From Actinomycetota bacterium (GTDB lineage Bacteria > Actinomycetota > Acidimicrobiia > Spongiisociales > ZC4RG35): a stretch of DNA of 33,451 nucleotides. The notes beneath the pieces were generated by a model. The model was given only the letters and a program-made list of their open reading frames with translations, was not told the origin of the DNA and did no database searches. A program made the position numbers and the translations under genes. This document shows positions 122-25,465 of the stretch, piece after piece (the stretch's first letter is position 1; each line of letters begins with the position of its first letter). The stretch spans positions 1-33,451 of the forward strand of contig JALDXP010000001.1 in the NCBI GenBank assembly GCA_032154885.1. The letters run 5' to 3'.

Positions 122-2947
122 TCAAACGTAGGCGTCGAGGGGCGGGCATGCGCACACGAGATTGCGGTCGCCACCGGGACCATCCACGCGGCCGACGGGT
201 GGCCAGTATTTGTCCACCCGGAGCGAGGCCACCGGGAAGGCGGCTGTCTCCCTCGAGTAAACGTGGTCCCATTCGTCCGACGCCACCTGCTCGGCCGAAT
301 GAGGTGCGTTGTGCAGAGGGTTGTCGCCCGGGCTCCACTCCCCGGACTCGACGCGCCCCACCTCGCCGTGAATGGCGATCATGGCCTCCACGAATCGATC
401 CAGTTCCTCGAGGCTCTCGGACTCAGTGGGCTCGATCATCAGAGTGCCGGGCACCGGGAACGAGAGCGTAGGTGCATGAAACCCGTAGTCGGCGAGACGC
501 TTGGCGATGTCTTCCGCGGTCACGCCTGCAGCACGCGTCATGGGTCTCACATCGACTATGCACTCATGGGCTACGCGACCGTTCGTCCCGGTGTACAGCA
601 CCGGGAAATAGGGATCGAGGCGCCGAGCCAGGTAATTGGCCGAGAGAATCGCCACCTTGCTCGCCGCCCGCAGGCCGTCGGCTCCCATCAGGCGGACGTA
701 GGCATACGGGATGGGGAGGATCCCGGCCGACCCGAAGGGCGCTCCAGAGATCGGCCCCACTCCGGTCGACGGGCCTGCCCGCTGACTCATTGGGTGATTG
801 GGTAGAAATGGGGCAAGATGTGCCTTCGCCCCAACCGGGCCCACGCCAGGCCCACCACCCCCGTGAGGGATGGTGAACGTCTTGTGGAGATTCAGATGTC
901 CGACGTCCGCCCCAAATCCGGCCGGCTTGGATAGCCCCACCATCGCATTCAGATTGGCCCCATCGACATAGACCTGGCCACCGTGTTGGTGCACGATCTC
1001 GATCAGCCGTCGCACCCCTTCCTCGAAAACACCATGGGTCGAGGGATAGGTGATCATTGCCGCAGCCAGCCGCTCGGAGTTCTCCGACGCCTTGGCTTCG
1101 AGGTCGGCGAGGTCGACGTTCCCCGAGCTATCGGTGGCGACTACCACGACCTTCATGCCTGCCATCACTGCCGAGGCGGCGTTGGTTCCGTGTGCTGACG
1201 ACGGGATCAGACAGATGTCTCGATGCCCTTCTCCAATCGAACCCTGATAGGCGCTGATCGCGAGCAGACCTGCGAGCTCGCCCTGCGAGCCGGCGTTGGG
1301 CTGCAGCGACACGGCGTCGTAGCCGGTGATGCGGCAGAGATAGTCGGCAAGGTCATCGATCAACTCCAGGTATCCAGCCACCTGCTGCTCCGGCGCATAA
1401 GGGTGGATTGCGGAGAATTCTGGCCAGGTGATCGGGATCATCTCTGTGGTTGCGTTGAGCTTCATCGTGCAAGACCCCAGTGGGATCATGCTTCGGTCAA
1501 GGGCGAGATCGCGGTCGGCAAGGCGTCGCAGGTAACGGAGCATCGAGTGCTCCGACCGATGCAGACTGAACACCGGGTGAGTCATGAACTCCGATTGCCT
1601 GACCAGGTCGACAGGAATCGAGTCGTCGTTGGTGGCGACGACAACAGTCGCGCCAAAAGCATCGAGCAACCGCTCGACGATCTGATCGGTGGTCGTCTCG
1701 TCGAAGGCGATCCGCACGTGGTCCTCATCCACACGCCCGAGATTGATCCCGCGCTTCAAGGACTGCCCTATCAGCTCCTCGGCTCTGCCTGGAGTGGCAA
1801 CGGTGATCGTGTCGAACCACGACCCATTGACCACCTCATATCCGGTGGATCGAAGAGATGCGGCAGTCACCGAGGTCACCCGGTGCACCTCCTTTGCGAT
1901 CTCTTTCAGACCTAGCGGCCCGTGCCAGCAGCCGTAGAAGCCGGCGATCACCGCGAGAAGGACCTGCGCGGTGCACACGTTGGACGTGGCCTTCTCCCGC
2001 CGTATGTGTTGTTCCCGTGTCTGGAGGGCAAGCCGATAGGCGACGCGACCCGACGTGTCATGAGAGACACCGACGAGGCGGCCGGGGAGGCCCCGGACGT
2101 GCTCTTCCCTGGTGGCGATGAAACCGGGATGGGGCCCGCCGAATCCCAGAGGGACGCCGAAACGCTGGGCTGAGCCCACAGCGATGTCGGCACCCCACTC
2201 CCCCGGCGGTGTGATGGAGGCGAGAGCGAGCAGATCGGCGGCCACAGCCACCAAAGCTCCGGCGCCGCGGGCCTCGTCGACCAGGGCCCGGTGGTCCCTG
2301 ATGTCACCCGAAGATCCCGGATACTGGAGCAGCAAGCCAAACGACGCATCGGCCTCGAAGCCCTCGGAGAGCATCCGGATCTCGATCCCGGCCGCCGCGG
2401 CCCGGGTCTTCACCACCTCGATTGTCGGGAGATGGCAATCGTCATCGATGTAGAACACCGACCGATCGCTCTTGGCGAGGCGTCGGCACATGGCCATGGC
2501 CTCGGCGGCGGCGGTCGCTTCGTCGAGCAGCGAGGCGTTGGCCACCTCCAGACCCGTGAGATCGGCGACCATCGTCTGGAAATTGAGGAGGGCCTCGAGC
2601 CGGCCCTGGGAGATCTCGGGTTGATACGGGGTGTAGGCCGTGTACCAGGCCGGGCTCTCCAACACGTTGCGTTGGATCACCGGTGGGGTGATGGTGTCGT
2701 GATAGCCCAACCCGATCAACGAGGTCATGACCACGTTCTTTGATGCGAGGTCTGACAACCTCTCGATCGTCTCGCCTTCGGACAGGGCCTGGGGAAGGTC
2801 GAGGTCTTTGTCGAGGATCGAGGCGGGGATGGTCTCGGTCACGAGGTCATCGAGACTGGCCGCGCCGATCGTCGCCAGCATCTTGTCGACATCGTCAGGC
2901 CGGGGACCGATGTGTCTGTCGGCGAACCGCTCGTGGGGGTTGGGCAT
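122..2947 (-). CDS. gcvP: glycine dehydrogenase (decarboxylating), glycine cleavage system P protein
   Basis: From Met41 of the 981-aa ORF ([15 protein letters not shown]...) this is a full-length single-chain P protein. The PLP-lysine region [18 protein letters not shown] is present. I placed the start at the ATG at 2945-2947 because the 40 upstream codons overlap the glycine riboswitch. Confidence 0.95.
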
Positions 2948-2949
2948 CT

Positions 2950-3090
2950 CTCTCCTCAGGGTGCAATGCCCTCCCCCGCTGTCGTTGCCTTCAGCGATGC
3001 CTCGACCGAACGGTCCAAGTGCCTGAGAGATTCCGGGGAGGAGTTGCCCCTTCGGCGCCCCTGCCAACCAGGGGCTCTCCCATTCGGTGT
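2950..3090 (-). promoter_or_regulatory. glycine riboswitch in the gcvP leader (one clear aptamer plus a weaker adjacent unit)
   Basis: The minus strand reads ...GGGAGAGCCCCTGGTTGGCAGGGGCGCCGAAGGGGCAACTCCTCCCCGGAATCTCTCAGGCACTTGGACCG... This carries the glycine-aptamer hallmarks GGAGAG, CGCCGAAGGGGCAA and CTCTCAGGC..GGAC. A weaker ...GCTGAAGGCAACG... segment follows, then the SD-like GAGGAGAG directly before the gcvP ATG. The boundaries are approximate. Confidence 0.7.
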
Positions 3091-3154
3091 CGATGGCCAG
3101 GCCAGTCTAATTGGCCGGCCGGAGTCACACGTTGAAACGGAGTGAGGCGACATT

Positions 3155-3686: not shown

Positions 3687-4769
3687 TCAAACGTTGAAGC
3701 GAAACTCGACCACGTCGTCGGGTCGCATCACGTAGGACTTGCCCTCGGTCCTGACCAGACCTTTTGCCTTGGCCGCCACCCATGAGCCCGCCTCGACCAA
3801 AGCCTGGTAAGCCGCGACCTCGGCCGCGATGAACCCCCGTTGGAAGTCGGTGTGGATGGCGCCGGCCGCCTCGGGGGCGGTCGCCCCGGACCGGATCGTC
3901 CAGGCACGGGCTTCCTTCTCTCCGGCGGTGAGAAAACTCTGCAGGCCCAGGGTGCGATAGGCGGCCCGGATCACGGCATTGAGGCCGGGCTCGTCCTGTC
4001 CCACCGAGGCGAGAAGCTCCCGTCGATCTTCATCGTCGAGCTCGCCCATCTCGGCCTCGATCTGAGCATCGACGAAAAGCGACTCGGATGGGTCCACCAG
4101 ATCCGACAAACGGCTGCGGAGGGCATCGTCGCGCAGACCCGCCTCGTCCACATTGAACAGATAAATGACCGGCTTGGCCGTCAGCAGATGAAGATCGGAG
4201 AAATCAGCGCTACGGGCCATCATCGACGGGACGCTGCTAACCACACGCCCCGAAGCCACCACTGCGCGCAGCTCTCTGAGCAGTTCGACCCTCGGCATGA
4301 GTGTCCGATCGATGGTCGACTCCTTTTCGAGGCGAGGCAGCCGCTTGTCGATCGTCTGGAGGTCGGCGATGGCCAGCTCGGTCTCGATCGTCTCGATATC
4401 CCTCTTGGGATCGAGCTCGTTGTCGACATGGGCAACGCTCTGCGAGCTGAAGCCCCTCACCACATGGCATATTGCGTTCGCATCGCGGATGTTGGCGAGG
4501 AACTGGTTGCCGAGACCTTCCCCCTCGCTGGCTCCCTTCACCAGTCCCGCGATGTCCACGAAGGTGACTGTGGCCGGGATGACCCTCTCCGAGTCGAAGA
4601 TGCCGGCCAGGACCTCGAGCCGGGGGTCGGGTATCGGAACGACCCCCGTGTTGGGCTCGATCGTGGCGAAGGGATAGTTGGCGGCGAGAACGCCGGCATC
4701 GGTGAGCGCGTTGAAGAGAGTCGACTTGCCGACGTTGGGGAGACCGACGATGCCAATGGAGAGCGCCAC
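3687..4769 (-). CDS. ychF: ribosome-binding / redox-regulated ATPase YchF
   Basis: The N-terminal P-loop is IGIVGLPNVGKSTLFNALT. The length is 360 aa and the C-terminus ...DDVVEFRFNV is characteristic of YchF/OLA1. It uses a GTG start. Confidence 0.95.
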   Translation of the reverse strand: MALSIGIVGLPNVGKSTLFNALTDAGVLAANYPFATIEPNTGVVPIPDPRLEVLAGIFDSERVIPATVTFVDIAGLVKGASEGEGLGNQFLANIRDANAICHVVRGFSSQSVAHVDNELDPKRDIETIETELAIADLQTIDKRLPRLEKESTIDRTLMPRVELLRELRAVVASGRVVSSVPSMMARSADFSDLHLLTAKPVIYLFNVDEAGLRDDALRSRLSDLVDPSESLFVDAQIEAEMGELDDEDRRELLASVGQDEPGLNAVIRAAYRTLGLQSFLTAGEKEARAWTIRSGATAPEAAGAIHTDFQRGFIAAEVAAYQALVEAGSWVAAKAKGLVRTEGKSYVMRPDDVVEFRFNV

Positions 4770-4820
4770 CGAGATCGCAGGTTAGGGAGCGGCCCGGGCA
4801 TGCCCACTACCGTCGCTTCG

Positions 4821-5819
4821 ATGGACAGGATCGCAGTGATTGGCGCCGGGTCGTGGGGCACGACCGCCGCAGCCCTCGCCGCTACGGACACGCCCACCAT
4901 GCTCTGGGCGCGCCACCCTGAGGTCGCCGATGGCGTCAACCAGCATCATCGGAATCCCCGCTACCTGCCCGACCATCCCCTCCCCGATGGCCTCGTCGCC
5001 ACGTCGCACCTTGCCGACGCGGTCGCGGGTGCCGGCGCCGTCGTGATGGCAGTCCCGTCACATGGGTTTCGTGGTGTTTTCTCCGAAGCCGCCCCCCTCA
5101 TCGATGCCTCTGTCCCCATCCTCTCCCTGACCAAAGGAATCGAACAAGAGACCCTTGCCACCATGACAAAGGTGATCTCAGATGTGTCCCCGACCCACGA
5201 TCGGGGACGGATCGGCGTCCTGACCGGCCCCAACCTCGCCTCGGAGATCGCCGCCGGCCAGCCAACGGCAGCGGTCATCGCATTTCAGGACCCGGATGCG
5301 GCCGTCTCACTCCAGAAGGTGTTCATGGGGCCGACCTTCCGCGTCTATACCAATGACGACGTGCCCGGTTGCGAGCTGGGAGGTGCCCTCAAGAACGTCA
5401 TGGCGATCGCAGCCGGTATGTCTGACGGCCTCGGGTTCGGCGACAACACGCGGGCCACCCTCATCACCCGAGCTCTTGCCGAGGTGACACGCCTGGGGAC
5501 CGCATTGGGGGGCCGCCCGTCGACCTTCGCCGGGCTGGCCGGGATGGGGGACCTGATCGCGACCTGCATCTCCACCAACAGCAGGAACCACCACGTTGGC
5601 TTCGGGCTAGCCCGAGGAGAGACACTCGATGCGATCGTCCAAGAGATGCAGATGGTGGCCGAAGGAATCAAGACCACTCGAGCCGTCCTCGACCTGGCCA
5701 CCAAACACGGGATCGATATGCCGATCGCGGCCCATGTCGGAATGGTTTTGTACGAGGGGATGCACCCCCGCGACGCCGTCCTGCGCCTCATGACCCGTGA
5801 CCCCAAGTCGGAGAGCTAG
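4821..5819 (+). CDS. gpsA: NAD(P)H-dependent glycerol-3-phosphate dehydrogenase
   Basis: MDRIAVIGAGSWGTTAA is a Rossmann motif, and GALKNVMAIAAG and the other GpsA blocks are present. The long 659-aa ORF is an artefact, because its N-terminal half is antisense to ychF. An alternative in-frame ATG lies at 4800. Confidence 0.92.
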   Translation: MDRIAVIGAGSWGTTAAALAATDTPTMLWARHPEVADGVNQHHRNPRYLPDHPLPDGLVATSHLADAVAGAGAVVMAVPSHGFRGVFSEAAPLIDASVPILSLTKGIEQETLATMTKVISDVSPTHDRGRIGVLTGPNLASEIAAGQPTAAVIAFQDPDAAVSLQKVFMGPTFRVYTNDDVPGCELGGALKNVMAIAAGMSDGLGFGDNTRATLITRALAEVTRLGTALGGRPSTFAGLAGMGDLIATCISTNSRNHHVGFGLARGETLDAIVQEMQMVAEGIKTTRAVLDLATKHGIDMPIAAHVGMVLYEGMHPRDAVLRLMTRDPKSES

Positions 5820-6458
5820 ATGGCGAGGACACCAAATGCGATCCGCCGCCTGCCCGAGAAGTCTGTCGATGATCGAGCAACCATCGACGCCATCCTGGAC
5901 GAGGGCTTCGTCTGTCATGTCGCCTATATGGTCGAAAGCAGGCCTGTGGTCATCCCGACGCTCTATATGCGCGACGGCGACACATGCCTGCTCCATGGGT
6001 CGACCGCGTCGGGGATCGCCGCTGCGGCACGCCGGGGCTCACCGCTCTGCATCGCGGTGACACTCGTCGACGGGCTTGTCGTGGCACGGAGCGGGTTCGA
6101 ATCCTCGGTCAACTACCGATCCGTCGTCATCCATGGACATGGCACTGTCCTCACCGGCGACGCCCATCGACGAGCCCTCGACCTGATGGTGGATGGTCTG
6201 ATCCCGGGCCGACTCGCCGATATCCGGCCTCCCACGGAGATCGAGTTACGCAAGACCGCAGTAGTCGCAGTCCCGCTCGACACGATTTCGGCCAAGATGT
6301 CGGCAGGCCCACCCGAAGACGATGTCGCCGACCTGGGCACCGGGGTGTGGGCAGGGGTGGTGCCGATGACCACTGTCTATGGAGATCCGGAGCCCTCACC
6401 GGACCTCGAGCCAAATGTCGAAGTCCCGGACTATCTAATCGGATACAAGCGTTCTTGA
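5820..6458 (+). CDS. pyridoxamine 5'-phosphate oxidase-family FMN-binding protein
   Basis: The 212-aa ORF starts immediately after the gpsA stop (TAG-ATG junction). The N-terminal pattern ...IDAILDEGFVCHVAYMVESRPVVIPTLYMRDGDTCLLHGS resembles PNPOx-like split-barrel proteins. Family assignment is from recollection only. Confidence 0.7.
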   Translation: MARTPNAIRRLPEKSVDDRATIDAILDEGFVCHVAYMVESRPVVIPTLYMRDGDTCLLHGSTASGIAAAARRGSPLCIAVTLVDGLVVARSGFESSVNYRSVVIHGHGTVLTGDAHRRALDLMVDGLIPGRLADIRPPTEIELRKTAVVAVPLDTISAKMSAGPPEDDVADLGTGVWAGVVPMTTVYGDPEPSPDLEPNVEVPDYLIGYKRS

Positions 6459-6498
6459 TTGAGCGCAACCGCGGCAGGGAGTCCGGTGTTCTAGAGAT

Positions 6499-7458
6499 AT
6501 GACCAACCGTCTGCTGTCCACATCCCACGGCACCAATCGTGATGCCTTCACCGGTCGCGATTGGGCCCGTTTTGTGTCGATCGGCCTCATCTGGGGCGCG
6601 TCGTTTCTGTTCATCGAAGTCGGGCTCGACGCCTTCCACCCGGGTCTGGTGACCTGGATGAGGGTCGGTTTTGGCGCTCTCTTCATGGCCATGCTCCCCC
6701 GTGCTCGATCGACCCCGATCCGACGCGAGGATCGCCCGCGGGTGGCGCTTCTCGCTGTGGTCTGGGTAGCCATACCATTGACGCTCTTCCCGATTGCACA
6801 GCAATGGATCGACTCCGCAGTCGCCGGGATGCTCAATGGCGCGGTGCCGATCTTCACCGCAATCATCGCTTCGGTCCTGCTCCGACAGCTCCCTGGGCGT
6901 CTCCAGATCGCAGGCCTGATCGTCGGCTTCATCGGCATTTTGGCCATCGCCCTCCCGTCGGCAGAATCGGGCAACACTGCTGCCCTTGGCGTGGGCCTCG
7001 TGCTGGTGGCCTGCATCTGTTACGGATTCGCTACCAACATCGTCACACCCCTGCAACAGGCCTACGGGTCGATCCCGGTCATGGCACGGATGCTCTGGGT
7101 GGCCGCAGTGCTCGTCGCCCCGTACGGCCTGTACGGCCTCACCCGGTCCACCTTCGCCTGGGGTTCCCTCGCCGCCCTGATGGCCCTTGGCCTTCTCGGG
7201 ACCGGTCTCGCCTACATCATCATGGGAGGACTGGCAGGCAGTGTCGGCCCGACCCGGGCCAGCTTCATCACCTACCTGATCCCGGTGGTGGCCCTGATCC
7301 TCGGAGTCGTGTTCCGCGATGAGATAGTGGCGCCTGTTGCCATAGTCGGATCGCTCCTCGTCATCGCCGGAGCATTCCTTGCTTCGAGAAGGGAGACCCC
7401 GGCCGCAACCCTGGCAACGCCGGCTGCACCCGATGTCGAGGACGACGACGCGGCCTGA
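6499..7458 (+). CDS. EamA/DMT-family transporter
   Basis: The 319-aa polytopic membrane protein has two EamA-like halves. GC3-rich codon usage is consistent with a real gene. Confidence 0.85.
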   Translation: MTNRLLSTSHGTNRDAFTGRDWARFVSIGLIWGASFLFIEVGLDAFHPGLVTWMRVGFGALFMAMLPRARSTPIRREDRPRVALLAVVWVAIPLTLFPIAQQWIDSAVAGMLNGAVPIFTAIIASVLLRQLPGRLQIAGLIVGFIGILAIALPSAESGNTAALGVGLVLVACICYGFATNIVTPLQQAYGSIPVMARMLWVAAVLVAPYGLYGLTRSTFAWGSLAALMALGLLGTGLAYIIMGGLAGSVGPTRASFITYLIPVVALILGVVFRDEIVAPVAIVGSLLVIAGAFLASRRETPAATLATPAAPDVEDDDAA

Positions 7459-7556
7459 ATGTCCCCCTCCGGCCCTGACGGGCCACCTCCCCTGCTGGGG
7501 AGGACAGAATCTCCCCCTCCGGCCCTGACCGGCCACCTCCCCTGCTGGGGAGGACA
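7457..7556 (+). repeat. tandem duplication (2 x 50 nt) of a REP-like bipartite-hairpin element, copies E1/E2
   Basis: 7457-7506 is gaatgtccccctccggccctgacgggccacctcccctgctggggaggaca. 7507-7556 is gaatctccccctccggccctgaccggccacctcccctgctggggaggaca, with 2 mismatches between units. Each unit holds two hairpins (ggccc-tgac-gggcc and cctcccc-tgct-ggggagg). The tandem fills the whole convergent gap between the EamA stop (7456-7458) and the nurA stop (7560-7562). Confidence 0.9.
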
Positions 7557-7559
7557 TGG

Positions 7560-8462
7560 TCAGGCGGCCGCCCGCCTCAACGCCCTCATCGCCAGGTCAC
7601 GATCGCCGAGTCTGCGGCGCAGCTCACGTTCCAGGCCACCGATCGGATAGAGGTTCTGGGGAGCCCGGGGGTCTTTGTGCCGGGCTGACGCATAGCGGGG
7701 CAGCGAGGCGCTCACCATGTTGGCCCGACGTGCGGCGTCGGCCACGGTCATGTCGGCCTTGACCTCACATCGAACCAGCCCTCCGGCAGGCCCGGTCCCG
7801 TTGGCCAGTCTCAGGTACCACGAGAACCTGCTCCATGATGTCGTGGTCAGGAATAGCGGTGTGCGGCATCCGACCGGCAGGCTCCCCAGGGTGCCCCTCA
7901 GATCTTCGGGCAGGTATTGGACGTGCTGGGTCTTCACATAGCCCACCGCCCCTTCGACATGCCGGCGATGTGAGAGCGGGCCGTCGACTACGACGAGAGC
8001 CACGTCTGCGTTTGCTTCGGCGACCACGCCCTCGAGGTCACCCATCCTCTCCTGGATCCCCAGCCACAGCTCCTCAGGAGTCGATCCCTTCGTGCTCATG
8101 ATCTCGTAGGTCCCCACCGCCGTCTCAACGGAGTCGGCATCGGCGCCGGTGAAGACCCCGCGTCGCACCTCGGCGGCCACCACACGGGCAATGCTGTTGC
8201 AGCGAACGGCCCCGGCAGCGAAGGTGGCGGCCAGGCCAAAACCCGGGAAACGGCCATCGCGGTCGATCCAGAGATTGGCATCGACCCGGCGAACACCGTC
8301 GACGAAGAGGATGTCCGGCGCAGGGTCGCCTTCGGGTGGCATCGGGCGCCACTGCTCAGGGGGAAGCTCGACGGAGGTATCGACGTTCTCCGTCGCATCG
8401 ACGAGATCCGCCTCCGACGGCGCTCCGTAGTCGGGGTCCCATGCTTCGACCGTGAACCTCAT
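7560..8462 (-). CDS. nurA: NurA-like 5'-3' nuclease
   Basis: The 300-aa ORF is the last gene of the herA-sbcD-sbcC cluster. NurA-like acidic motifs are ILFVDGVRRVD near the N-terminus and ALVVVDGPLSHRRH mid-protein. The call rests on these motifs plus gene context. Confidence 0.65.
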   Translation of the reverse strand: MRFTVEAWDPDYGAPSEADLVDATENVDTSVELPPEQWRPMPPEGDPAPDILFVDGVRRVDANLWIDRDGRFPGFGLAATFAAGAVRCNSIARVVAAEVRRGVFTGADADSVETAVGTYEIMSTKGSTPEELWLGIQERMGDLEGVVAEANADVALVVVDGPLSHRRHVEGAVGYVKTQHVQYLPEDLRGTLGSLPVGCRTPLFLTTTSWSRFSWYLRLANGTGPAGGLVRCEVKADMTVADAARRANMVSASLPRYASARHKDPRAPQNLYPIGGLERELRRRLGDRDLAMRALRRAAA

Positions 8463-8469
8463 CTTCTGG

Positions 8470-8514
8470 TCTCCCCTCGCAGGGGGGAGTACCGGCGCAG
8501 CCGGGGAGGGGGGA
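8470..8514 (-). repeat. REP-like bipartite-hairpin element, copy B (inverted copy of 3636-3680)
   Basis: The sequence is tctcccctcgcaggggggagtaccggcgcagccggggagggggga. Its reverse complement differs from copy A only in the 4-nt loop of one hairpin plus one adjacent base. It lies between the sbcC stop (8518) and the nurA start (8462). Confidence 0.85.
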
Positions 8515-8517
8515 CTC

Positions 8518-10848
8518 TCATTCCCCCACCCTCACTATCGATGAAGTCTCAGGGCCCTTGGTGACCTCGAAGCGGACTGGCATCCGCTCGGCGAGCTCAC
8601 GCACGTGGGTGACGATGCCGACGGTGCGGCCCCGACCGACCAGCTCGTCGAGCACGGATGCAACAACGTCGAGAGATTCCTGGTCGAGGGAGCCGAATCC
8701 CTCGTCGAGGAACACGGACTCGAGGCGGGAGGACATCCCGGTCAGTTCGGCCAACTGCTCAGCCATGGTGAGGGCGAGGGAGAGGGCGACCAGAAATGTC
8801 TCGCCACCGGAGAGGGTCCGTGTGGTTCGAGTGAGCCGGGCATTGCGATGGTCGACGACTTCGAACTGACTCTTCTTGACCCTCAGCGAGTAGCTGCCAC
8901 CTGAGAGCTCGTCGAGAAGACGGTTGGCGCCATCGATCAGAACATCCATCGCCTCCTCGAGGAGCCAGGCCTCGAAGTTGTTGGCCTTGAGGTGGTTGCC
9001 GAGGGAGGACGCGACACGAGCATGGCCCATCTCGACACCCAGTTCCTCGTTCAGCTCAGTGGCGTGAGCGATCGTCTTCTCCATCTCTTCGATCTCGGCC
9101 CGCCGTCGCTCCTCCGCCAAGGCAAGGTCGCGATCAGGTGACTCAGTGGAAGGGATTCCGAGCAGTTCGAGCCAGGAGCGCTGCTCCTGCTGCACTTTCG
9201 CCAAGCCTTCGGCAGCCGACTCGACTGCCTTTTCGAGATCGCCCAATTCCTCCACGCGAGCTGCGGTCCTCTCCCCCAGCCATGTCTCGAAAAGCCGCCA
9301 GGCTTCGATGGCGTCGTCATCGGGGAGTGGTGGCTTCTCGTCCGCAATCTGATCCCTGACGGCGAGAAGGGCCTCGCGCAGACCTGAGCCGCGTGTCTTG
9401 AGATCAGCAACGGCGAGACGTGCCTGATCGACGGCGAGGGCGGCCTGCGTCACCGCCTTCTCGCCGGCTTGCCGGGATTCGACCAAAGCCCGGACAGTGG
9501 TGATCGCCTCCTCGAGGGCGTCGAGGTCCTGCTTTCCCTCCAGACGCCCACTGACTTCGTCGAGCTGACGATCAATCTGCTTTGCCTGCCCCTCTGCCTC
9601 CTTGAGGCCGTCCCGAGCGCGATCTGCCCGCTCCTCGAGCTCTCGCAACTCGCTGGTGAGATCGTCGAGCGAGATGTCCGGCCCGTCGATCTCTTCAGTC
9701 ATCGGAGCAACCACCGACCGGCACACGGGACAGGTGTCACCAGTGGCGAGCCCCCGACGAATGTCATGAGCGGCGTGCTCGACACGGAGCACGTCCAGCG
9801 AGCGACGCTTCTCATCGCGATCGGCGGTTATCTCGCTCACGGCCGTGGTGAGAGATTCGAGACTGAGCTCCAACCTGCGGTCGGCGAGATCCCGGTGCAG
9901 GAGCCGGTCGGTCCTCGCCGACTCGAGACTGGCCAGCTCGGGGCGCCCCGCCATGTCCGCATCGATCGCCTTGGCCGTCTCGACAGCTCCGGCCAGTTCC
10001 TTCTCGAGCGTTTCGAGATGCTTGGCGGCGGCCGCCATATCCGTGTCGAGAGTGTCCAGATCGTCGGGCACTTCGATGGCCCGGAGCCGGGTGAGACTCT
10101 CCGCCGCTGACGCATGTGTCGACCTCGCCTCGCCCAACATGGCCGCAAGCCGGCCGATCTCTTCGAGACGGGCCGGGAGCTCGACTCTGGCTCGTGTCAG
10201 GTCTCCCAGAAGTTGCCGCGCTTCCTCGATCTGCTCCGGAGTTGCGATTTCGAGCTTGGCCAGGCTGTCATTCACCGACTTTGCCCTCGCCTCGGCCAGC
10301 TTGGCTCGCTGATTGGCGAGCTGCATGACTTGCTCGTACAAACCCATCTCGAGCAAGGCACCGAGAAGGGCCTGACGATCGCTCGGCTTGTCAGTGAGAA
10401 AGTCGGCAAACGCACCCTGGGGTAGGACGACCGCTTTGATGAAATGCTCGTACCGCAGACCGAGCAGGTCGGTCACCGCATTGGTCACCTCGTCAGCCGT
10501 CCCCGCCAGCACCTCCTGGCCCTCACCACGGAGCAGGCGGGCCTCGGTAGTGGATGCCCCCAATCCCTGCCGCACCATGAGCCGGACGGCTTTGTAGGTC
10601 TCCTCACCGACCGAGAACTCGAACTCGACCCGGCAAGTGTCTGCCTGAGCCGAGATGAGGGGCGCCACCGAGCCCTTGCCTACGCGGGGGATGGCCCCAT
10701 AGAGAGCAAACGTCATCCCGTCGATGACGCTCGATTTGCCCGATCCCGTCGGGCCTGACAGCACGAAGAGGTCTGCATCGGTGAAGTCGATCTCGGTCCT
10801 GCGCCGGTAGGCGAGGAATCCCTCCATCACCAGGCGCTGCGGTCTCAC
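8518..10848 (-). CDS. sbcC: SbcC/Rad50-family ATPase with zinc hook
   Basis: Motifs present are Walker A LSGPTGSGKSS, a long coiled-coil, a central CPVC zinc hook (9721-9732, residue 373 of 776), the signature motif LSGGETFLVALSLAL, Walker B VFLDEGFGSLD and the H-loop VGIVTHV. The GTG start overlaps the sbcD stop (GTGA). Confidence 0.9.
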   Translation of the reverse strand: MRPQRLVMEGFLAYRRRTEIDFTDADLFVLSGPTGSGKSSVIDGMTFALYGAIPRVGKGSVAPLISAQADTCRVEFEFSVGEETYKAVRLMVRQGLGASTTEARLLRGEGQEVLAGTADEVTNAVTDLLGLRYEHFIKAVVLPQGAFADFLTDKPSDRQALLGALLEMGLYEQVMQLANQRAKLAEARAKSVNDSLAKLEIATPEQIEEARQLLGDLTRARVELPARLEEIGRLAAMLGEARSTHASAAESLTRLRAIEVPDDLDTLDTDMAAAAKHLETLEKELAGAVETAKAIDADMAGRPELASLESARTDRLLHRDLADRRLELSLESLTTAVSEITADRDEKRRSLDVLRVEHAAHDIRRGLATGDTCPVCRSVVAPMTEEIDGPDISLDDLTSELRELEERADRARDGLKEAEGQAKQIDRQLDEVSGRLEGKQDLDALEEAITTVRALVESRQAGEKAVTQAALAVDQARLAVADLKTRGSGLREALLAVRDQIADEKPPLPDDDAIEAWRLFETWLGERTAARVEELGDLEKAVESAAEGLAKVQQEQRSWLELLGIPSTESPDRDLALAEERRRAEIEEMEKTIAHATELNEELGVEMGHARVASSLGNHLKANNFEAWLLEEAMDVLIDGANRLLDELSGGSYSLRVKKSQFEVVDHRNARLTRTTRTLSGGETFLVALSLALTMAEQLAELTGMSSRLESVFLDEGFGSLDQESLDVVASVLDELVGRGRTVGIVTHVRELAERMPVRFEVTKGPETSSIVRVGE

Positions 10849-11975
10849 CTGGCGAGAACCTCCTCCTCGAGCTCCCGGAACAGCTCCACAACAGCGGGAT
10901 CGTCGACCCCCTTCGAGCTGAGATAGGCCTCCAGCAGCGCCGCCGGAGACCGGCCCACCCGTTCGATACGTTCCCGGGGCGCCTGGTCCTCTGGCTGGGC
11001 GATGATCACGTCGACCGCCCCCGGGATCGCATCTCTGACTTCCTCGTTGAGACCTGCTCTGGCCTGCTCGTCGAGCAACACCTTCACATAGGACCCTTCC
11101 ACCTCGGCAGCTCGGCTGAGCACCTGCTCGAGGGTGCCCCGTATCTGCACGAGCCCGATACCGCCCTCCAGCGGGATTTGATCCACCGATGCCGGCTTTC
11201 CCGGCTCGGCCTCCACGACGAGGACGCCCTTCTCGTCACTGACCTCACCGAAGTCGAGCTGCATCGGTGACCCGCTGTACCAAACAGGGGCGGAGGCGGG
11301 AATCCTCTGCTGACGGTGGAGGTGTCCCAGCGCGACATACGAGAGGCTTCCCGGAAAGGCCTGAGGGGGGATGGCATAGCCAAAGATGTGGGCTTCACGC
11401 TCGCCGCCGCCACTCTCCGCCCCATACACGGTGAGATGCCCGGTGAGCACGTTGACAGTGTCCGTGCCCATGCCTTCGGTCAGACCGCCGATGATCCGTC
11501 TCAGCCGCTCTTCGTATCCCTGGGAGTGTTGATCGGGGTCGAGATCCATGATCTCCGCCGCCTTGATGATGCCGCGCTGAGAGACGAATGGGAGGCAAGC
11601 CACCTTGAGGCCGAGAGACTCGAAGAGCGCCACCCCACCATCGAGAGGCCGCGTGGGACGAGCGACGACCGTGATTCGACCCAGATCGAGGAGCGGTTTC
11701 ACCGCTTCCAGCCGGGCAGCGCTGTCGTGGTTGCCCCCCACCACAATGACAGGGCCGACCTCGGCGAGGCCGAGCAGTGCTCGATAGACGATCGATTCGT
11801 CCTCAGGTAAGGGTGAGGAGATATCGAAGAGGTCACCGGCGACCAGAGTGATGTCGACACGCCGGTCCCGAGCGATTTCGACGATCTCGGACAGGACCGC
11901 CCGATGCTCATCAGCCCTGGAGCGACCACGAATCTTCCTCCCTACATGCCAATCAGAGGTGTGGAGCAATCTCAT
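10845..11975 (-). CDS. sbcD: SbcD/Mre11-family nuclease
   Basis: The protein starts at MRLLHTSDWHVGR. The calcineurin-like phosphoesterase motifs DWH, GDLFD, GGNHD, TGHL and GHLH are all present. The 245 codons upstream in the 621-aa ORF run through the herA 3' region in another frame and are rejected. Confidence 0.9.
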   Translation of the reverse strand: MRLLHTSDWHVGRKIRGRSRADEHRAVLSEIVEIARDRRVDITLVAGDLFDISSPLPEDESIVYRALLGLAEVGPVIVVGGNHDSAARLEAVKPLLDLGRITVVARPTRPLDGGVALFESLGLKVACLPFVSQRGIIKAAEIMDLDPDQHSQGYEERLRRIIGGLTEGMGTDTVNVLTGHLTVYGAESGGGEREAHIFGYAIPPQAFPGSLSYVALGHLHRQQRIPASAPVWYSGSPMQLDFGEVSDEKGVLVVEAEPGKPASVDQIPLEGGIGLVQIRGTLEQVLSRAAEVEGSYVKVLLDEQARAGLNEEVRDAIPGAVDVIIAQPEDQAPRERIERVGRSPAALLEAYLSSKGVDDPAVVELFRELEEEVLAR

Positions 11976-12040
11976 GGTGGGACCGAGCAGGTCATCGCTC
12001 CCGATCGTAGGTCGGGGCAGGGACAGTTCCTGGGAGGCTC

Positions 12041-13714
12041 CTAGAGGTCTTCGAAGGGGTCGGCCGGGCCATCGATCTCGCCAGGTGCCCTCCCTGCCTC
12101 GGAAGCGCGGGTAGCCCAGGCCGGGAAGGGGAATTCGAGGACGAGTGGGACCGGGATCTCCGGTTGCGCCAGGAGCATGGTCCCCGGCTTCAGGATGGTG
12201 GCGCGCTGTCTCTGTGCGGCGGGGAGAAAGCCGTACTCCTCCCGGGACGCTTCGGCCGAGTCGAGTCTGCCCACCACCCGAATCGAGGAGTTGGCGATGA
12301 TCCGCCTCTCCACCTCCGATGCGGTCTGCTGGGCGCCGATCAGGATCACGCCCAGTGAGCGGCCCCGTTCGGCCACGTCTAGAAGCACTTCCTTTATCGG
12401 GCTGGCTCCCTCTCTCGGGGCGTACTTGTTCAACTCGTCGAGGACCAGGAAGAGCAGCTCGTCGGATTGGCCCGCTTTCTCCTTGTCCTCGAGGGCCCGG
12501 CGCACTGCCACACCGACCACGAACCGTTTTGCCCGATCGTTGAGGTTGTGAAGGTCCACCACGGTGATCTGGTGGCCCTGAACCTCGATCCGGTGCCGAT
12601 CCGGGTTGGCGATGTCGCCTCGTATCAGCCGTTCGACATGCCGGACGGATCCCTGAAGTCTTCGCACGAAGGCGTTGACGGTCCCGGCCCCGATATGGGG
12701 GCCGGCCCAATCGTTCCGGGTTTCCTCCTCCTGGACCTTCCGGGTCACCAGATCGACCAGGTCCCGGAAGGTCCGCACCGTGTCCCCTTCGATGCGGACC
12801 GACCCCCCGTCCGCCGGGTCGGCATGTCGGAGCTGAGCCATGACGTTGTAGACGACCATCGTGTACTGCGCACGCTCATCCTCTGCGTCGGCGAAGAGGA
12901 AGACCATCAAGTCTTCGTGGCAGAACTCGGCCAGCGTCCAGAAGAACGACGTCAGGTCGGAGCGGCTGCTCACATCGGCCACCGCCCGATCGGACCCGGG
13001 CCGCGGCGGAGCGAACAGACCGACCGAGCCGAACGGCTGGGCCGGTAGCTCCAGCGCCCGATAGAGACGCTCGGCGTCTTCGTCGAGGCTGGTGTTCCGC
13101 CGGTCGAGATGAAGGAGGTCTTCGCCCTTCACGTTGAAGATGAGCGCCCGGGTGTTGACGACGGCCGCTCCGAGTACCCCTGACGTGAACAGAGAGTGGA
13201 GGAGAAAGGTGGCGTAGCTGGTCTTCGTAGCGACACCTGATATCCCGGAGATGTTGACGTGGGCGCCCCGCTGCCCGTTGATGAACTCGAAGTTTGCATA
13301 GAGGGGCTCGCCGCTACGCGAAGCGCCGACCGGGAACCTGCGATCCATCCGATCGAAGAACAAGGCCTGGTCGCGCTCCTTCCCGTGGGCCCTGCGCACT
13401 GGTTGTCCGGGACGGGGTGGGACGAAGATCTCGGGCTCGACCCGGGTCGCAGTCACTTGTGCCGCCTCCATGACCTCGGCCGGCAGAACCCCGTCCTCGA
13501 TGAGGAAGACGTCGGAGTCGAATCGGGCGCCCTCGTGGCGGGCCCGCACCTGGCTGATGGTCCCGAAGATCTTGACCAACTCACCTGTCGGAAGGACGCG
13601 CTCGAGGGCGACGACATCGTCCAGCTCCAAGTATTCGCCTTCGGCTACGCCGACCCAGAATTCGAGCGGTGTGGCGTCGACAGTCCCCAGCACGCGACCG
13701 ACCATCTCCTCCAT
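12041..13714 (-). CDS. herA: HerA-like (FtsK/HerA superfamily, DUF87-type) ATPase
   Basis: The N-terminus has a HAS-barrel-like pattern (GRVLGTVDATPLEFWVGVAEGEYLELDDVV). There is a P-loop-like segment NISGISGVATKTSYA, a Walker B LLFLVLDELNKYAP, and the C-terminal block SLGVILIGAQQTASEVERRIIANSSIRVVGRL. I chose the start at Met41 (13712-13714). The ORF's first ATG at 13834 would overlap the divergent GT gene. Confidence 0.78.
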   Translation of the reverse strand: MEEMVGRVLGTVDATPLEFWVGVAEGEYLELDDVVALERVLPTGELVKIFGTISQVRARHEGARFDSDVFLIEDGVLPAEVMEAAQVTATRVEPEIFVPPRPGQPVRRAHGKERDQALFFDRMDRRFPVGASRSGEPLYANFEFINGQRGAHVNISGISGVATKTSYATFLLHSLFTSGVLGAAVVNTRALIFNVKGEDLLHLDRRNTSLDEDAERLYRALELPAQPFGSVGLFAPPRPGSDRAVADVSSRSDLTSFFWTLAEFCHEDLMVFLFADAEDERAQYTMVVYNVMAQLRHADPADGGSVRIEGDTVRTFRDLVDLVTRKVQEEETRNDWAGPHIGAGTVNAFVRRLQGSVRHVERLIRGDIANPDRHRIEVQGHQITVVDLHNLNDRAKRFVVGVAVRRALEDKEKAGQSDELLFLVLDELNKYAPREGASPIKEVLLDVAERGRSLGVILIGAQQTASEVERRIIANSSIRVVGRLDSAEASREEYGFLPAAQRQRATILKPGTMLLAQPEIPVPLVLEFPFPAWATRASEAGRAPGEIDGPADPFEDL

Positions 13715-13769
13715 CCGGGCGAGCGTAGACCCGGGGAGGGACGGATTGAGGGCCACGTAGGCTCGCTGC

Positions 13770-14915
13770 GTGAGCCTGGCGGTGTTTCCCTTCAAATCGG
13801 AGGAGCCCTCCCTGGTCGTCTCCAATCTCGCCACGGCAGCGGCTCACCCGGCGATCGACGAGGTATGGGCCGTGGCGCCGGAGATAGGCGGCGCGGAGGC
13901 GTCAGTTCGAGCGATGGCGAAAGAAGTGTCCGGCGCCCATGCCAAGCCAGTTGAGGTGATCATTCAGGAGCGTGTGGGCACTCACCGATCGGGCAAGGGC
14001 GACGCGATGAACACTGCCCTGGCCCTCGCCGCCGGGCAGGGGCGGCATCGGGTCCATTTCTACGACGCCGACATCACCAACTTCGACGCGTCTTGGATCG
14101 ACGGGGCCGAGGCTGCGGCCGACAGGGGCTTCGGCGTGGTGAGACACCGGTTCCCCAGGGCAGCGACCGACGCGATGATCACGTGGATGATCACCAGACC
14201 GGCCCTGGCCCGCCTGTTCCCCGGGACCTTCCTCCCCAGGCTCGACCAGCCGCTCGGAGGTGAGGTCCTGCTCACCCTGCCAGCCGTTGAGACCCTGGCC
14301 GCCTCGGATCTGGTGCGAAGTCGTTCCGACTGGGGGATCGACACGGTTTTGACCTACGCCACCTCGGTGATGGACATCGGCTTCTACGAGCACCACGTTG
14401 CCGACGGGAAACGACACGCCCTCTACGGGTCGCTCGACGAGTTACGGGAGATGCTGATCGAGTGCCTGGATGCGGCCGCATCACTGTCGGGCCGGCCCGG
14501 CCCCGGGCCTGGCGCCAGACATGCCACCGACCCACCCGCCCCGGTCCCGGAGGATCTGAAACAGATCACGGCATATGACCTGCAAGGCACCGTCCGCCTC
14601 CTCGACGCGGAATGGAGCCCCGACGAGGTCCATCTCGCCGAGAGCCTGCCCACGGACCTCTCCGGTCTCCTCCTCGACGATCCGGTCCGGCCGAGATTCG
14701 AGCTGATGGACGCCGACCGATGGCACATGGCGCACGGTTTCTTGATGGATAGCTTCGCTATCGGCGACCCGGCATGGGAGTCGCTGGCCTTTCGCCTCTG
14801 GCTGACCCGGGTGCTGTCCTACACGACCAATCAGGCCAGGGAGGGGTTCGACGCCGCCATCGCATATCTCGAATCCACGATTCGACGCTACGAGGTGATC
14901 GCTGGATCCTCCTGA
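13770..14915 (+). CDS. glycosyltransferase, mannosylglycerate synthase-like (GT78; GT81 GpgS-like is the alternative)
   Basis: Motifs are GKGDAMNTAL, HFYDADITNF, FPRAATDAMITWMITRP, QPLGGEVLL and RSDWGIDTV. The 381-aa length and C-terminal helical extension match my recollection of Rhodothermus-type mannosylglycerate synthase. It uses a GTG start. Confidence 0.7.
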   Translation: MSLAVFPFKSEEPSLVVSNLATAAAHPAIDEVWAVAPEIGGAEASVRAMAKEVSGAHAKPVEVIIQERVGTHRSGKGDAMNTALALAAGQGRHRVHFYDADITNFDASWIDGAEAAADRGFGVVRHRFPRAATDAMITWMITRPALARLFPGTFLPRLDQPLGGEVLLTLPAVETLAASDLVRSRSDWGIDTVLTYATSVMDIGFYEHHVADGKRHALYGSLDELREMLIECLDAAASLSGRPGPGPGARHATDPPAPVPEDLKQITAYDLQGTVRLLDAEWSPDEVHLAESLPTDLSGLLLDDPVRPRFELMDADRWHMAHGFLMDSFAIGDPAWESLAFRLWLTRVLSYTTNQAREGFDAAIAYLESTIRRYEVIAGSS

Positions 14916-20467: not shown

Positions 20468-20812
20468 ATGACCGACGAGCATCAGGACCCGTTGGAAGTT
20501 GAGCGAGACCTTCCTGCCGAGCCCGACGAGCGCGAGACGCCGGCCCGTCGTTCGGGAGCCACTGGGATCGCGTGGGGGGCCATCTTCGCGTTCGCCGGGA
20601 TCGCCCTGGTCATCGTCTTCGCGGTCCAGAACACGGACCCGGTACCGGTCAGGTTCCTCTGGATGGAGGGAGAGCACCCGCTGGCCATCGTGATCCTGAT
20701 CACGGTCGGTGTCGTGATCCTGCTGACCGAGCTGATAGGTGTCAGCTATCGCAAGCGACGGCGTCGGCGGCGCGAGGAGAGAGATGAGCTGCGGAGGTTG
20801 CGGGACGTGTGA
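20468..20812 (+). CDS. LapA/DUF1049-family small membrane protein
   Basis: It starts at MTDEHQDP.... It has two TM helices with VQNTDPVPVRFLW between them, and a basic tail KRRRRRREE. The earlier ORF start at 20354 would overlap the MFS gene. Confidence 0.65.
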   Translation: MTDEHQDPLEVERDLPAEPDERETPARRSGATGIAWGAIFAFAGIALVIVFAVQNTDPVPVRFLWMEGEHPLAIVILITVGVVILLTELIGVSYRKRRRRRREERDELRRLRDV

Positions 20813-21624
20813 GCATGCCCGCCGGGGCTCTGGCCCTGGTCATCCTCCTCTGTGCCTGCTGGTCGCCTGGACAAGGAAGCGGGAACGCGGAATCGCCCGA
20901 AGACCTCGTTCCTGGGCGCGTCATACGGGTGAATGACGGAGATTCTGCCGTGGTTGCCACCGAAGACTCCGACATCGAAGTGAGGCTGATGGGTGTCAAC
21001 GCCCCCGAGCAGGTCGAGTGCCACTACCACGATTCGACGAATCATCTCGCCGGGCTGATCGACGGCGAATCGGTCGCCCTAGAAGTGATCTCGACCGACC
21101 AGTTCGACCGCACCCTGGCCTATGTCTGGCTAGATGGCCTGCTCGTGAACCAGGACCTGGTGAGTGGCGGTTTCGCCATCGCCACCACTCCATCGCAGGA
21201 CGGCGATCCCCATGGTGAAATGCTCCTCGCAGCCGAGGACACCGCCTTCGAGGCGGGACTGGGTCTGTGGTCCCACTCCGTATGCGGCTCGGCTGGTCCG
21301 CTCCCTGAAGTGGTCGTCGATGCCCGTGGGTCCGAATTCGACCCGTCCGGGCCGGATGAGGAGGTCCTCGACGAGGAGTGGGTTTCGCTCACAAGCGTCG
21401 AGACCGTCGATGTGGGCGGCTGGACGATCCGTGACGAGTCGTCGCAACATCGGTGCCACCTCCCTTCGGGCACCACGATCTCACCGGGCCGAGGCCTGAC
21501 CGTGACGAGCGCAGACGAGTGTTGGGACCCGGGCGGCAGCTCGGTGTGGAACAACAGCGGAGACATGATCCTGCTGCTCGACGATTCGGGCACGGTTTTA
21601 GAGCGACATCGTTACGGTCCATGA
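20809..21624 (+). CDS. secreted thermonuclease (SNase) fused to a lamin-tail domain, predicted lipoprotein
   Basis: The signal peptide ends LLCAC. SNase motifs are RLMGVNAPE and DRTLAYVWLDG. The C-terminal EWVSLTSVETVDVGGWTIRDES... is LTD-like. The GTGA start overlaps the upstream stop. Confidence 0.85.
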   Translation: MSMPAGALALVILLCACWSPGQGSGNAESPEDLVPGRVIRVNDGDSAVVATEDSDIEVRLMGVNAPEQVECHYHDSTNHLAGLIDGESVALEVISTDQFDRTLAYVWLDGLLVNQDLVSGGFAIATTPSQDGDPHGEMLLAAEDTAFEAGLGLWSHSVCGSAGPLPEVVVDARGSEFDPSGPDEEVLDEEWVSLTSVETVDVGGWTIRDESSQHRCHLPSGTTISPGRGLTVTSADECWDPGGSSVWNNSGDMILLLDDSGTVLERHRYGP

Positions 21625-25393: not shown

Positions 25394-25465
25394 CCGGCCG
25401 TCGAACCGGCGCCGTCGCTCCCGTCACCTACGATTGGCAGCGCCCGGCTCGAGAAGGGACATGAG

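Follow-up and report, generated by a model that had tools for sequence, protein, structure and literature searches.

A conserved herA–sbcD–sbcC–nurA gene cluster in an Acidimicrobiia genome as a probable damage-inducible module for DNA end resection

We analysed a 33,451-nucleotide (nt) stretch of DNA from an Actinomycetota bacterium of the class Acidimicrobiia (assembly GCA_032154885.1, contig JALDXP010000001.1), referred to below at its full length as the window, and studied in it a putative operon at positions 7560–13714 of the minus strand. Four adjacent, co-directional genes lie there in the order herA, sbcD, sbcC and nurA. The first, herA (12041..13714), encodes a bacterial-type HerA, a protein of the hexameric ATPase/translocase family, of 557 amino acids (aa). 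It is followed by sbcD (10845..11975), for a 376-aa Mre11-family nuclease subunit, sbcC (8518..10848), for a 776-aa Rad50-family ATPase with a CPVC zinc hook, and nurA (7560..8462), for a 300-aa bacterial-type NurA nuclease with a predicted RNase H-like fold. The TGA stop codon of sbcD is overlapped by the GTG start codon of sbcC in the sequence GTGA, whereas herA and sbcD are separated by 65 nt (12040..11976) and sbcC and nurA by 55 nt (8517..8463). G+C content is uniform over the locus. We rejected a longer herA open reading frame (ORF) beginning at a GTG at 13834 and placed the start at the ATG at 13714, because the alignment with Deinococcus radiodurans HerA (DrHerA) begins there and a promoter-like element lies just upstream.

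The 557-aa protein matched DrHerA (PDB 7f6d_B) in a phmmer search with E=2.7e-145, over query residues 1–544 of 557 in two contiguous stretches, and its similarity to characterised HerA spans the HAS-barrel at the N terminus, the RecA-like ATPase domain as well as the inserted helix bundle. Its Walker A motif (GVATKTS at residue 160), Walker B motif (LDELNKY at 425) and NVKGED motif (at 194) align with K175/T176, D487/E488 and D220 of DrHerA, with the catalytic acidic position conserved. Relatives of the protein fell into 517 clusters (50% identity) at E≤1e-30. No Pfam family matched at E≤0.01 and NCBIfam returned only weak C-terminal matches of 15–16 bits; the curated models of these two collections do not cover the bacterial, NurA-associated HerA clade. 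By homology and by its genetic linkage to nurA, HerA would form a hexameric ring that translocates double-stranded DNA and binds a NurA dimer.

The 300-aa protein is assigned to NurA by a single-sequence search of the PDB, by a family profile and by its predicted fold. As a single phmmer query it matched D. radiodurans NurA (DrNurA; 7f6d_H) at 1.6e-20 and Thermotoga maritima TM1739 at 1.9e-6, and a profile of 26 NurA homologues reached DrNurA at 8.4e-25 over residues 32–297 and TM1739 at 2.7e-10; some close homologues carry the PF09376 (NurA) annotation. An AlphaFold2 model (mean predicted local distance difference test score 69.5, predicted template modelling score 0.73, N-terminal 32 residues poorly modelled) was used for a Foldseek search, in which the top four matches were all NurA: 7f6d_G (8.4e-17), 1zup_A (3.5e-13), 1zup_B (1.3e-11) and the Sulfolobus protein 2ygk (5.2e-7), the last sharing 11% identity with the window NurA in the structural alignment. 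The fifth was TdpB, a NurA-like subunit of the TdpAB defence complex (4.9e-4), and the next, unrelated match had E>0.05. The motifs FVDG, EELW, VVDGP and HKDPRAPQN are invariant in the 26 homologues. Candidate catalytic residues are D55 (in FVDG, strand 51–65), E130/E131 (helix 129–150), D160 (in VVDGP, strand 156–160) and H262/D264; they are invariant in the same 26 homologues and lie on the expected strands and helices.

The two central genes encode a bacterial-type SbcCD, with the Escherichia coli proteins as the nearest solved relatives. SbcD matched TIGR00619 (sbcd) with 172.8 bits (cutoff 77.65; 1.1e-50) and Pfam Metallophos with 47.9 bits (2.8e-12), whereas archaeal Mre11 models reached at most 51 bits, and all five phosphoesterase motifs are present (DWH, GDLFD, GNHD, GH and GHLH). 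Among solved structures, E. coli SbcD came first (5e-35), followed by T. maritima Mre11 (1.4e-20) and Pyrococcus furiosus Mre11 (1.5e-11). SbcC has a split ABC head with Walker A GPTGSGKS at residue 32, LSGGE at 679, Walker B FLDEGFG at 713 and the H-loop VTHV at 746, and the CPVC zinc hook occupies residues 373–376 of 776. Its Pfam matches were AAA_23 (75 bits), SMC_N (46.8 bits) and SbcC_Walker_B (43.7 bits), and its solved relatives were, nearest first, E. coli SbcC (4.5e-44), T. maritima Rad50 (1e-30) and archaeal Rad50 (1.4e-19).

These results uphold most of what an earlier reading of the letters alone (the sequence-only reading) had said of the four genes. Their shared direction, the GTGA overlap that couples sbcD and sbcC translationally, the 65- and 55-nt junctions and the central CPVC were exact in coordinates and junctions. 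The ATPase that it had called HerA matches DrHerA over its full length and does not fall into another FtsK/VirB4 clade. Family models, motifs and the E. coli structures agree with its SbcD/Mre11 phosphoesterase and its SbcC/Rad50 with a CPVC hook, and PDB match, profile and Foldseek all agree on its NurA-like nuclease, which lies inside the NurA fold. The Pfam matches that it expected turned out differently: no HerA/DUF87 family matched, and the NurA family did so below its cutoff, with a score given below.

Gene order was then compared across the GTDB representatives, one genome per species, in which a scan with an alignment of diverse HerA sequences found relatives encoded at no fewer than 597 loci. 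The best 80 were analysed by tblastn with the window proteins; 13 of these were too short, leaving 67 with enough downstream DNA to be informative. In all 67, herA, sbcD, sbcC and nurA lie on one strand in the same order, an arrangement far beyond chance. The gap between herA and sbcD is below 400 nt in 58 of the 67 and 0.6–3.3 kb in the other nine. We rejected the intervening genes as additional subunits, since the ORFs examined in four of the nine loci are unrelated and vary by locus (thioredoxin/DsbA, FAD oxidoreductase, MerR, polyketide cyclase-like and M15 peptidase). The stop and start codons of sbcD and sbcC overlap by 4 nt in 33 of 70 loci and by 1 nt in a further 24 (57 of 70 together), those of sbcC and nurA overlap by 4 nt in 41 of 70, and a mid-protein CxxC is present in SbcC in 66 of 70 related loci (CPVC in 60, CPLC in 4, CVIC and CPIC in 1 each).

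The closest homologues come from metagenome-assembled genomes (MAGs) of Acidimicrobiia. Besides many Acidimicrobiia, carriers of the four genes include cultured Micromonosporaceae (Micromonospora, Actinoplanes, Phytohabitans, Longispora, Planosporangium and Plantactinospora), Egicoccus, Nonomuraea, a Mycobacteriales MAG, a Streptomyces linear plasmid, Acidobacteriota MAGs, a gammaproteobacterial chromosome (Azotimanducaceae) and a Saprospiraceae MAG (Bacteroidota). A second order, nurA–herA–sbcD–sbcC, occurs on cyanobacterial and Chloroflexota plasmids with more distant HerA homologues (27–46% identity). The four-gene order is common and conserved in Actinomycetota and not an oddity. The sequence-only reading had correctly recognised the gene order of thermophilic archaea, where the operon is listed as herA, mre11, rad50, nurA (PMC4351679), and the adjacency on which it had asked for a census is conserved in every informative locus. 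It had, however, considered the arrangement unusual for bacteria, which its retention in Micromonospora, Actinoplanes, many other Actinomycetota and other phyla contradicts, and had supposed that the characterised bacterial NurA–HerA pairs (Deinococcus, Thermus) are not embedded around SbcCD; a bacterial linkage had already been noted by Blesa et al. (2017) in the nurA-hepA-sbcD-sbcC cluster of Oceanithermus profundus (PMC5448004). This was the one mention of a bacterial HerA/NurA–SbcCD linkage that we found in the literature searched.

Upstream of herA we found a match to the consensus reported for PafBC, the DNA-damage activator of actinobacteria, from chromatin immunoprecipitation sequencing (ChIP-seq), tGTCgg(N10)tA(N3)T, which combines a −26 element containing a strict GTC with a −10 element and has no −35 element (PMC8635444). 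The predicted PafBC-type (RecA-NDp) herA promoter, at 13722..13743 on the minus strand, reads CGTCCC-TCCCCGGGTC-TACGCT (full motif CGTCCCTCCCCGGGTCTACGCT), with the GTC triplet in the −26 element and TACGCT as the −10 element. The ATG at 13714 follows after only 7 nt, so the herA mRNA is probably leaderless. A strict pattern, GTC-N12-TA-N3-T, was present in 28 of 82 herA upstream regions, against 0.005 expected per region, and a relaxed one, TGTC-N13-A-N3-T, in 55 of 82, against 0.036 expected; the window's own motif, with its CGTC, is outside the relaxed count. In Micromonospora the motif is TGTCGTACTCCTCGGGCAGGAT, followed by ATG or GTG after 7 nt, and in Actinoplanes it is TGTCGTACCTCTGAGGCACCAT, followed by GTG after 7 nt. 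No such motif was found in the non-actinobacterial loci examined. Two other patterns were of little use: the LexA SOS box (TCGAAC-N4-GTTCGA, up to 3 mismatches) gave no consistent matches upstream of herA, and a stricter RecA-NDp pattern, TGTCnGTG-N8-TAnnnT, gave almost none, the published ChIP-seq consensus being used instead.

A second PafBC-type motif lies in the spacer between herA and sbcD (12004..12025, minus strand) and reads TGTCCC-TGCCCCGACC-TACGAT (full motif TGTCCCTGCCCCGACCTACGAT). At the equivalent site 15 of 79 related loci share the strict motif with the window (about 0.4 expected), among them loci in which unrelated genes stand between herA and sbcD, and this suggests an internal promoter for sbcD–sbcC–nurA. 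The relatives with the motif ahead of sbcD are close ones from Acidimicrobiia. Enrichment upstream of herA and sbcD is roughly 35- to 60-fold over background; the −10 element lies 6–9 nt ahead of the start codon across loci, suggestive of leaderless mRNAs, and the spacers between the conserved motif positions vary by locus. Eight nucleotides after the internal −10 element begins a seven-codon ORF, MTCSVPP (11972..11995, minus strand), the TGA stop of which forms ATGA with the start codon of sbcD. Five related loci (L001 and L004–L007), in which the final base of the stop codon was unread, have an equally long ORF that begins at the same distance from the −10 element and ends on the sbcD start, and the small ORF may couple sbcD translation by termination–reinitiation. 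Together with the overlapping or short junctions between the genes, the two promoter-like motifs suggest one long transcript and one internal transcript.

As a control we searched about 1.6 Mb of fetched loci, in which the strict motif stood before a sizeable ORF 52 times: 25 times at herA, 12 times at sbcD and 15 times elsewhere. Four of the other genes examined belong to DNA metabolism and fit a DNA-damage regulon: RmuC, a LigD primase-polymerase, a DUF222-HNH protein and a DUF559 endonuclease-like protein (L083 2075–3217, plus strand; L056 20084–21142, minus strand; L010 3937–5034, plus strand; L034 8070–8987, minus strand). Further matches in the window, at 24565 inside a coding region and at 25414 before a small YtxH-like gene, were taken as chance because 3.6 matches are expected by chance. 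We infer from the motifs that, upon DNA damage, a PafBC-like WYL activator would switch on transcription of the operon at −26/−10 hybrid promoters, yielding leaderless or near-leaderless mRNAs, and the four genes are probably part of the damage regulon that PafBC controls in actinobacteria. In the literature searched we found no paper linking PafBC with herA, nurA or sbcD/sbcDC.

The surroundings of the operon are those of a housekeeping region. One flank carries gcvP with a preceding glycine riboswitch, gpsA, a pyridoxamine-oxidase-like gene and an EamA transporter gene; the other begins with a divergent mannosylglycerate synthase gene and continues with genes for transporters, for a HIT protein and for further metabolic functions. 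The window showed neither an integrase or transposase gene nor any neighbouring defence gene. Relatives whose NurA is 72–74% identical keep the four genes together with the mannosylglycerate synthase, gpsA and gcvP neighbours, and this conserved synteny, with the order maintained across families, fits vertical inheritance and not island turnover. Among 72,556 plasmid records only 6 (one in truth a chromosome) held HerA relatives, and 50,697 phage records gave 3 weak matches. From the housekeeping context and these searches we rejected an island-like or mobile status.

We consider it probable that the four genes are a vertically inherited chromosomal operon whose products process DNA double-strand breaks, with SbcCD and HerA–NurA making up a damage-inducible end-resection module. 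The reading draws on the protein identities, the intact motifs, the overlapping codons, the conserved order, the housekeeping context and the conserved matches to the PafBC consensus. By homology, SbcD–SbcC, the bacterial Mre11–Rad50, would recognise DNA ends, tether them through the zinc hook and open or clip them. A HerA hexamer docked on a NurA dimer, as in the D. radiodurans complex, for which a structure and a resection model have been published (PMC9960219), would pump duplex DNA into NurA, and NurA would split the strands and degrade the 5′ strand to leave a 3′ tail for RecA. The two complexes may cooperate physically or sequentially, as proposed for archaea, in which Mre11 interacts with HerA and all four genes are transcribed together (PMC2288612) and in which resection by the operon has been proposed (PMC3326311, PMC2288612). 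The biological role would be repair by homologous recombination or the control of recombination.

Several observations weigh against this reading. The operon and every actinobacterial member of its family are known from sequence alone, and the phenotypes in bacteria studied so far are mild or paradoxical; the module may have a role in modulating rather than simply promoting recombination. Two of the proteins score below the thresholds of their curated models: the single NurA sequence reached 16.5 bits on Pfam PF09376, under the gathering score of 21, and SbcC reached 263.2 bits (4.7e-78) on TIGR00618 (sbcc), under the trusted cutoff of 478.5, which fits a much shorter coiled coil, both halves of the head aligning. 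In the window itself the 55 nt between sbcC and nurA leave no overlap of the two genes. A simple scan of positions 7000–14200 returned no sigma-70-like promoter and no convincing terminator, the terminator-like sites being at chance level. The herA motif of the window has C, not T, at its first position, which is weakly conserved in the consensus; no pafBC gene lies within the 33-kb window; and published work on the PafBC motif covers Actinomycetes, including Salinispora (Micromonosporaceae), not Acidimicrobiia.

A first alternative, which we think unlikely, is that the genes are co-regulated while their products serve separate pathways, HerA–NurA acting in some other DNA transaction (restraining or modulating recombination, stimulating RecJ, pumping or segregation, or transfer) and SbcCD cleaving hairpins and blocked ends alone. 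Inactivation of nurA or herA in Thermus thermophilus reportedly raised ultraviolet resistance, a result said to come from Fujii and colleagues in 2018. The D. radiodurans HerA–NurA complex adds little to radioresistance and its HerA binds and stimulates RecJ (PMC4663267), and HepA (HerA) of Thermus, like a second NurA homologue there, has an effect on transjugation (PMC5448004). The nine of 67 loci in which unrelated genes separate herA from sbcD also indicate that a tight stoichiometric link is not obligatory, but in such split clusters sbcD keeps its own copy of the promoter motif. A separation of tasks is further at odds with the linkage of the four genes, which persists across phyla in two orders, with the translational coupling of sbcC and nurA in most loci, and with the binding of archaeal Mre11 to HerA (PMC2288612).

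More doubtful still is a role in defence against phages or plasmids, which the sequence-only reading had offered as an alternative and in which a HerA-type ATPase, a NurA-type nuclease and an SMC-like ATPase would destroy foreign DNA, as do Sir2–HerA, DUF4297–HerA, TdpAB, Lamassu or Wadjet. PADLOC models did match HerA (mad8 at 7.8e-11 over residues 377–491; HerA models at 5e-6 or weaker) and SbcC (LmuB at 2.5e-26, mad3 at 7.6e-23), and to these can be added the Foldseek match of NurA to TdpB. These matches are, however, partial and many orders of magnitude weaker than those to DrHerA and E. coli SbcC, and those of SbcC are what shared SMC/ABC heads would yield. PADLOC gave no match to NurA, and the window has no Sir2, DUF4297, LmuA or Jet partners. 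Defence-like company does occur elsewhere, since on a Streptomyces linear plasmid the operon stands near a Wadjet-like gene set and on cyanobacterial and Chloroflexota plasmids a cassette joins nurA, herA, sbcD and sbcC to sigma-70 and ImmA/IrrE genes. In the window the flanks are metabolic and transport genes in a synteny conserved among relatives, HerA relatives are nearly absent from plasmid and phage records, and DNA-damage-type motifs precede herA and sbcD, so that the defence alternative found no support.

That the block was acquired from thermophilic archaea by horizontal transfer, as the shared order (PMC4351679) and an archaeal origin proposed for bacterial HerA by earlier authors (PMC5448004) might suggest, is highly improbable, and we rejected a recent import on sequence affinities: SbcD and SbcC are closer to the E. 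coli than to the archaeal proteins, archaeal HerA structures were not detected by phmmer against the PDB at E≤1, the Sulfolobus NurA is distant, G+C content is uniform and the regulatory motif is specific to actinobacteria, all four proteins thus being bacterial-type and the archaeal order not the product of a recent block transfer.

The preferred reading, a bacterial end-resection operon, can be placed beside several known systems. The D. radiodurans NurA–HerA pair (PDB 7F6D; BMC Biol 2023, PMC9960219) belongs to the same families and the same bacterial subtype as the window pair, and the NurA motifs FVDG, VVDGP, GYVKT and HKDxRAPQNL stay conserved, or can be recognised, when the window NurA is aligned with DrNurA; the window protein is shorter (300 versus 369 aa). 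In Deinococcus nurA and herA stand alone with sbcCD elsewhere, whereas in the window herA and nurA bracket sbcD–sbcC, and the predicted PafBC-type regulation is unlike that of the Deinococcus pair. The archaeal herA–mre11–rad50–nurA operon of Sulfolobus and Pyrococcus unites the same four functions in closely spaced genes of one direction and identical order, and is induced by ultraviolet damage, as the window operon is predicted to be induced by damage. Constantinesco and colleagues are said to have listed it in this order in 2004. It differs in encoding Mre11/Rad50-type proteins where the window has SbcCD-type proteins with bacterial-type HerA and NurA (published identity between Thermus and Sulfolobus HerA is about 27%) and in belonging to thermophiles where the window host is a mesophile-looking, high-G+C Acidimicrobiia bacterium. 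In Sulfolobus the archaeal genes are essential.

The Oceanithermus, cyanobacterial and Chloroflexota clusters, like the window, link bacterial HerA and NurA physically to bacterial SbcD and SbcC; their order is nurA–herA–sbcD–sbcC, as opposed to herA–sbcD–sbcC–nurA in the window and at least 67 other genomes, and two of the plasmid versions bring their own sigma factor and ImmA/IrrE protease gene, both upstream. E. coli SbcCD (PDB 6S6V) shares the nuclease motifs, ABC-type heads and CxxC zinc hook with the window SbcCD, has a longer SbcC (1048 versus 776 aa, the window coiled coil being shorter) and is encoded by a stand-alone sbcDC pair with no HerA or NurA partner. The PafBC (RecA-NDp) regulon of mycobacteria and other Actinobacteria has the same tGTCgg-N10-tANNNT architecture, lacking a −35 element, as the window motifs.

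Reviews assign resection in bacteria to RecBCD, AddAB or AdnAB and in archaea to HerA–NurA with Mre11–Rad50 (for example, PMC7752040), and groups working on bacterial NurA–HerA describe its link to SbcCD as still open. The component families, the archaeal four-gene unit, bacterial NurA–HerA and one bacterial linkage to sbcDC are known already, whereas the breadth of the order, the routine translational coupling and the PafBC-type promoters appear undescribed in the literature searched, beyond whose reach lay older key papers. The four genes are, on this evidence, a conserved, translationally coupled unit in many bacteria. We put forward, tentatively and at somewhat under even chances, the wider proposal that in Actinomycetota and several other phyla SbcCD and HerA–NurA form a single, archaeal-style, four-component resection machine, induced by the RecA-independent PafBC response from leaderless −26/−10 promoters, to which the Deinococcus and Thermus arrangement of nurA–herA only would be a derived exception. 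If so, bacteria would possess a further resection pathway alongside RecBCD, AddAB and AdnAB. Because carriers include the cultivable and tractable Micromonospora and Actinoplanes, the relation between SbcCD and HerA–NurA is directly testable in bacteria. The locus represents an under-described repair module that extends known biology; it is not a new kind of system and not surprising in principle. It also exposes a gap in annotation, in that RefSeq labels are uninformative and Pfam/NCBIfam models miss HerA and NurA.

Among the related loci, that on the Streptomyces sp. BB1-1-1 linear plasmid (L084, NZ_CP134205 1–14453) carries herA–sbcD–sbcC–nurA near a Wadjet-like set (TIGR02680, TIGR02678 and DUF2397), from which an ImmA/IrrE gene and a hypothetical gene separate it, and RefSeq labels its HerA an 'ATP-binding protein' and its NurA a 'hypothetical protein'. 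The plasmid cassette with the alternative order comprises seven genes, for a sigma-70 factor, a hypothetical protein, an ImmA/IrrE metalloprotease, NurA, HerA, SbcD and SbcC, and was found on a Chlorohelix plasmid (L086, NZ_CP128402 2838–12152) and an Aulosira plasmid (L087, AP018313 2651–11963). The IrrE-type protease beside this distant form of the module is a hint that it is regulated in another, self-contained way, by damage sensing or in a defence-like manner. In one Acidimicrobiia MAG (L011), a gene for an AlkZ-like DNA glycosylase (6073–7248, plus strand) directly follows herA in the place of sbcD, and beyond a 154-aa ORF and a fructosamine-kinase gene the contig stops, some 2.4 kb past herA; AlkZ-like glycosylases are a family of interstrand-crosslink repair. 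The PafBC-type motif also precedes a class I/II aminotransferase gene in six loci of the Actinoplanes group (within L067–L078, around 2.5–5.6 kb, minus strand).

Four features of the flanks may also be recorded. A glycine riboswitch aptamer (RF00504, 68.5 bits) lies at 3001–3092 on the minus strand, upstream of gcvP, and the longest gcvP ORF (122–3067) overlaps it at the 5′ end, so the true gcvP start must be further downstream. At 3840–5819 on the plus strand the longest ORF has 659 codons' worth of protein (659 aa), with glycerol-3-phosphate dehydrogenase domains beginning only at residue 331. GpsA in relatives is about 332 aa long, and the N-terminal half of this ORF is therefore probably non-coding; in one relative (L002) a YchF-type GTPase gene separates gpsA from gcvP, and that half may conceal a ychF gene on the opposite strand. 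The mannosylglycerate synthase gene (13770–14915, plus strand; MGS_GT, 1.6e-82) is divergent from herA and 55 nt from it, a pairing kept in relatives L001–L003; mannosylglycerate is among the compatible solutes typical of thermophiles and halophiles. Finally, a gene at 20809–21624 (plus strand) encodes a staphylococcal-nuclease domain and a lamin-tail domain; the product may be an extracellular nuclease and appears unrelated to the operon.

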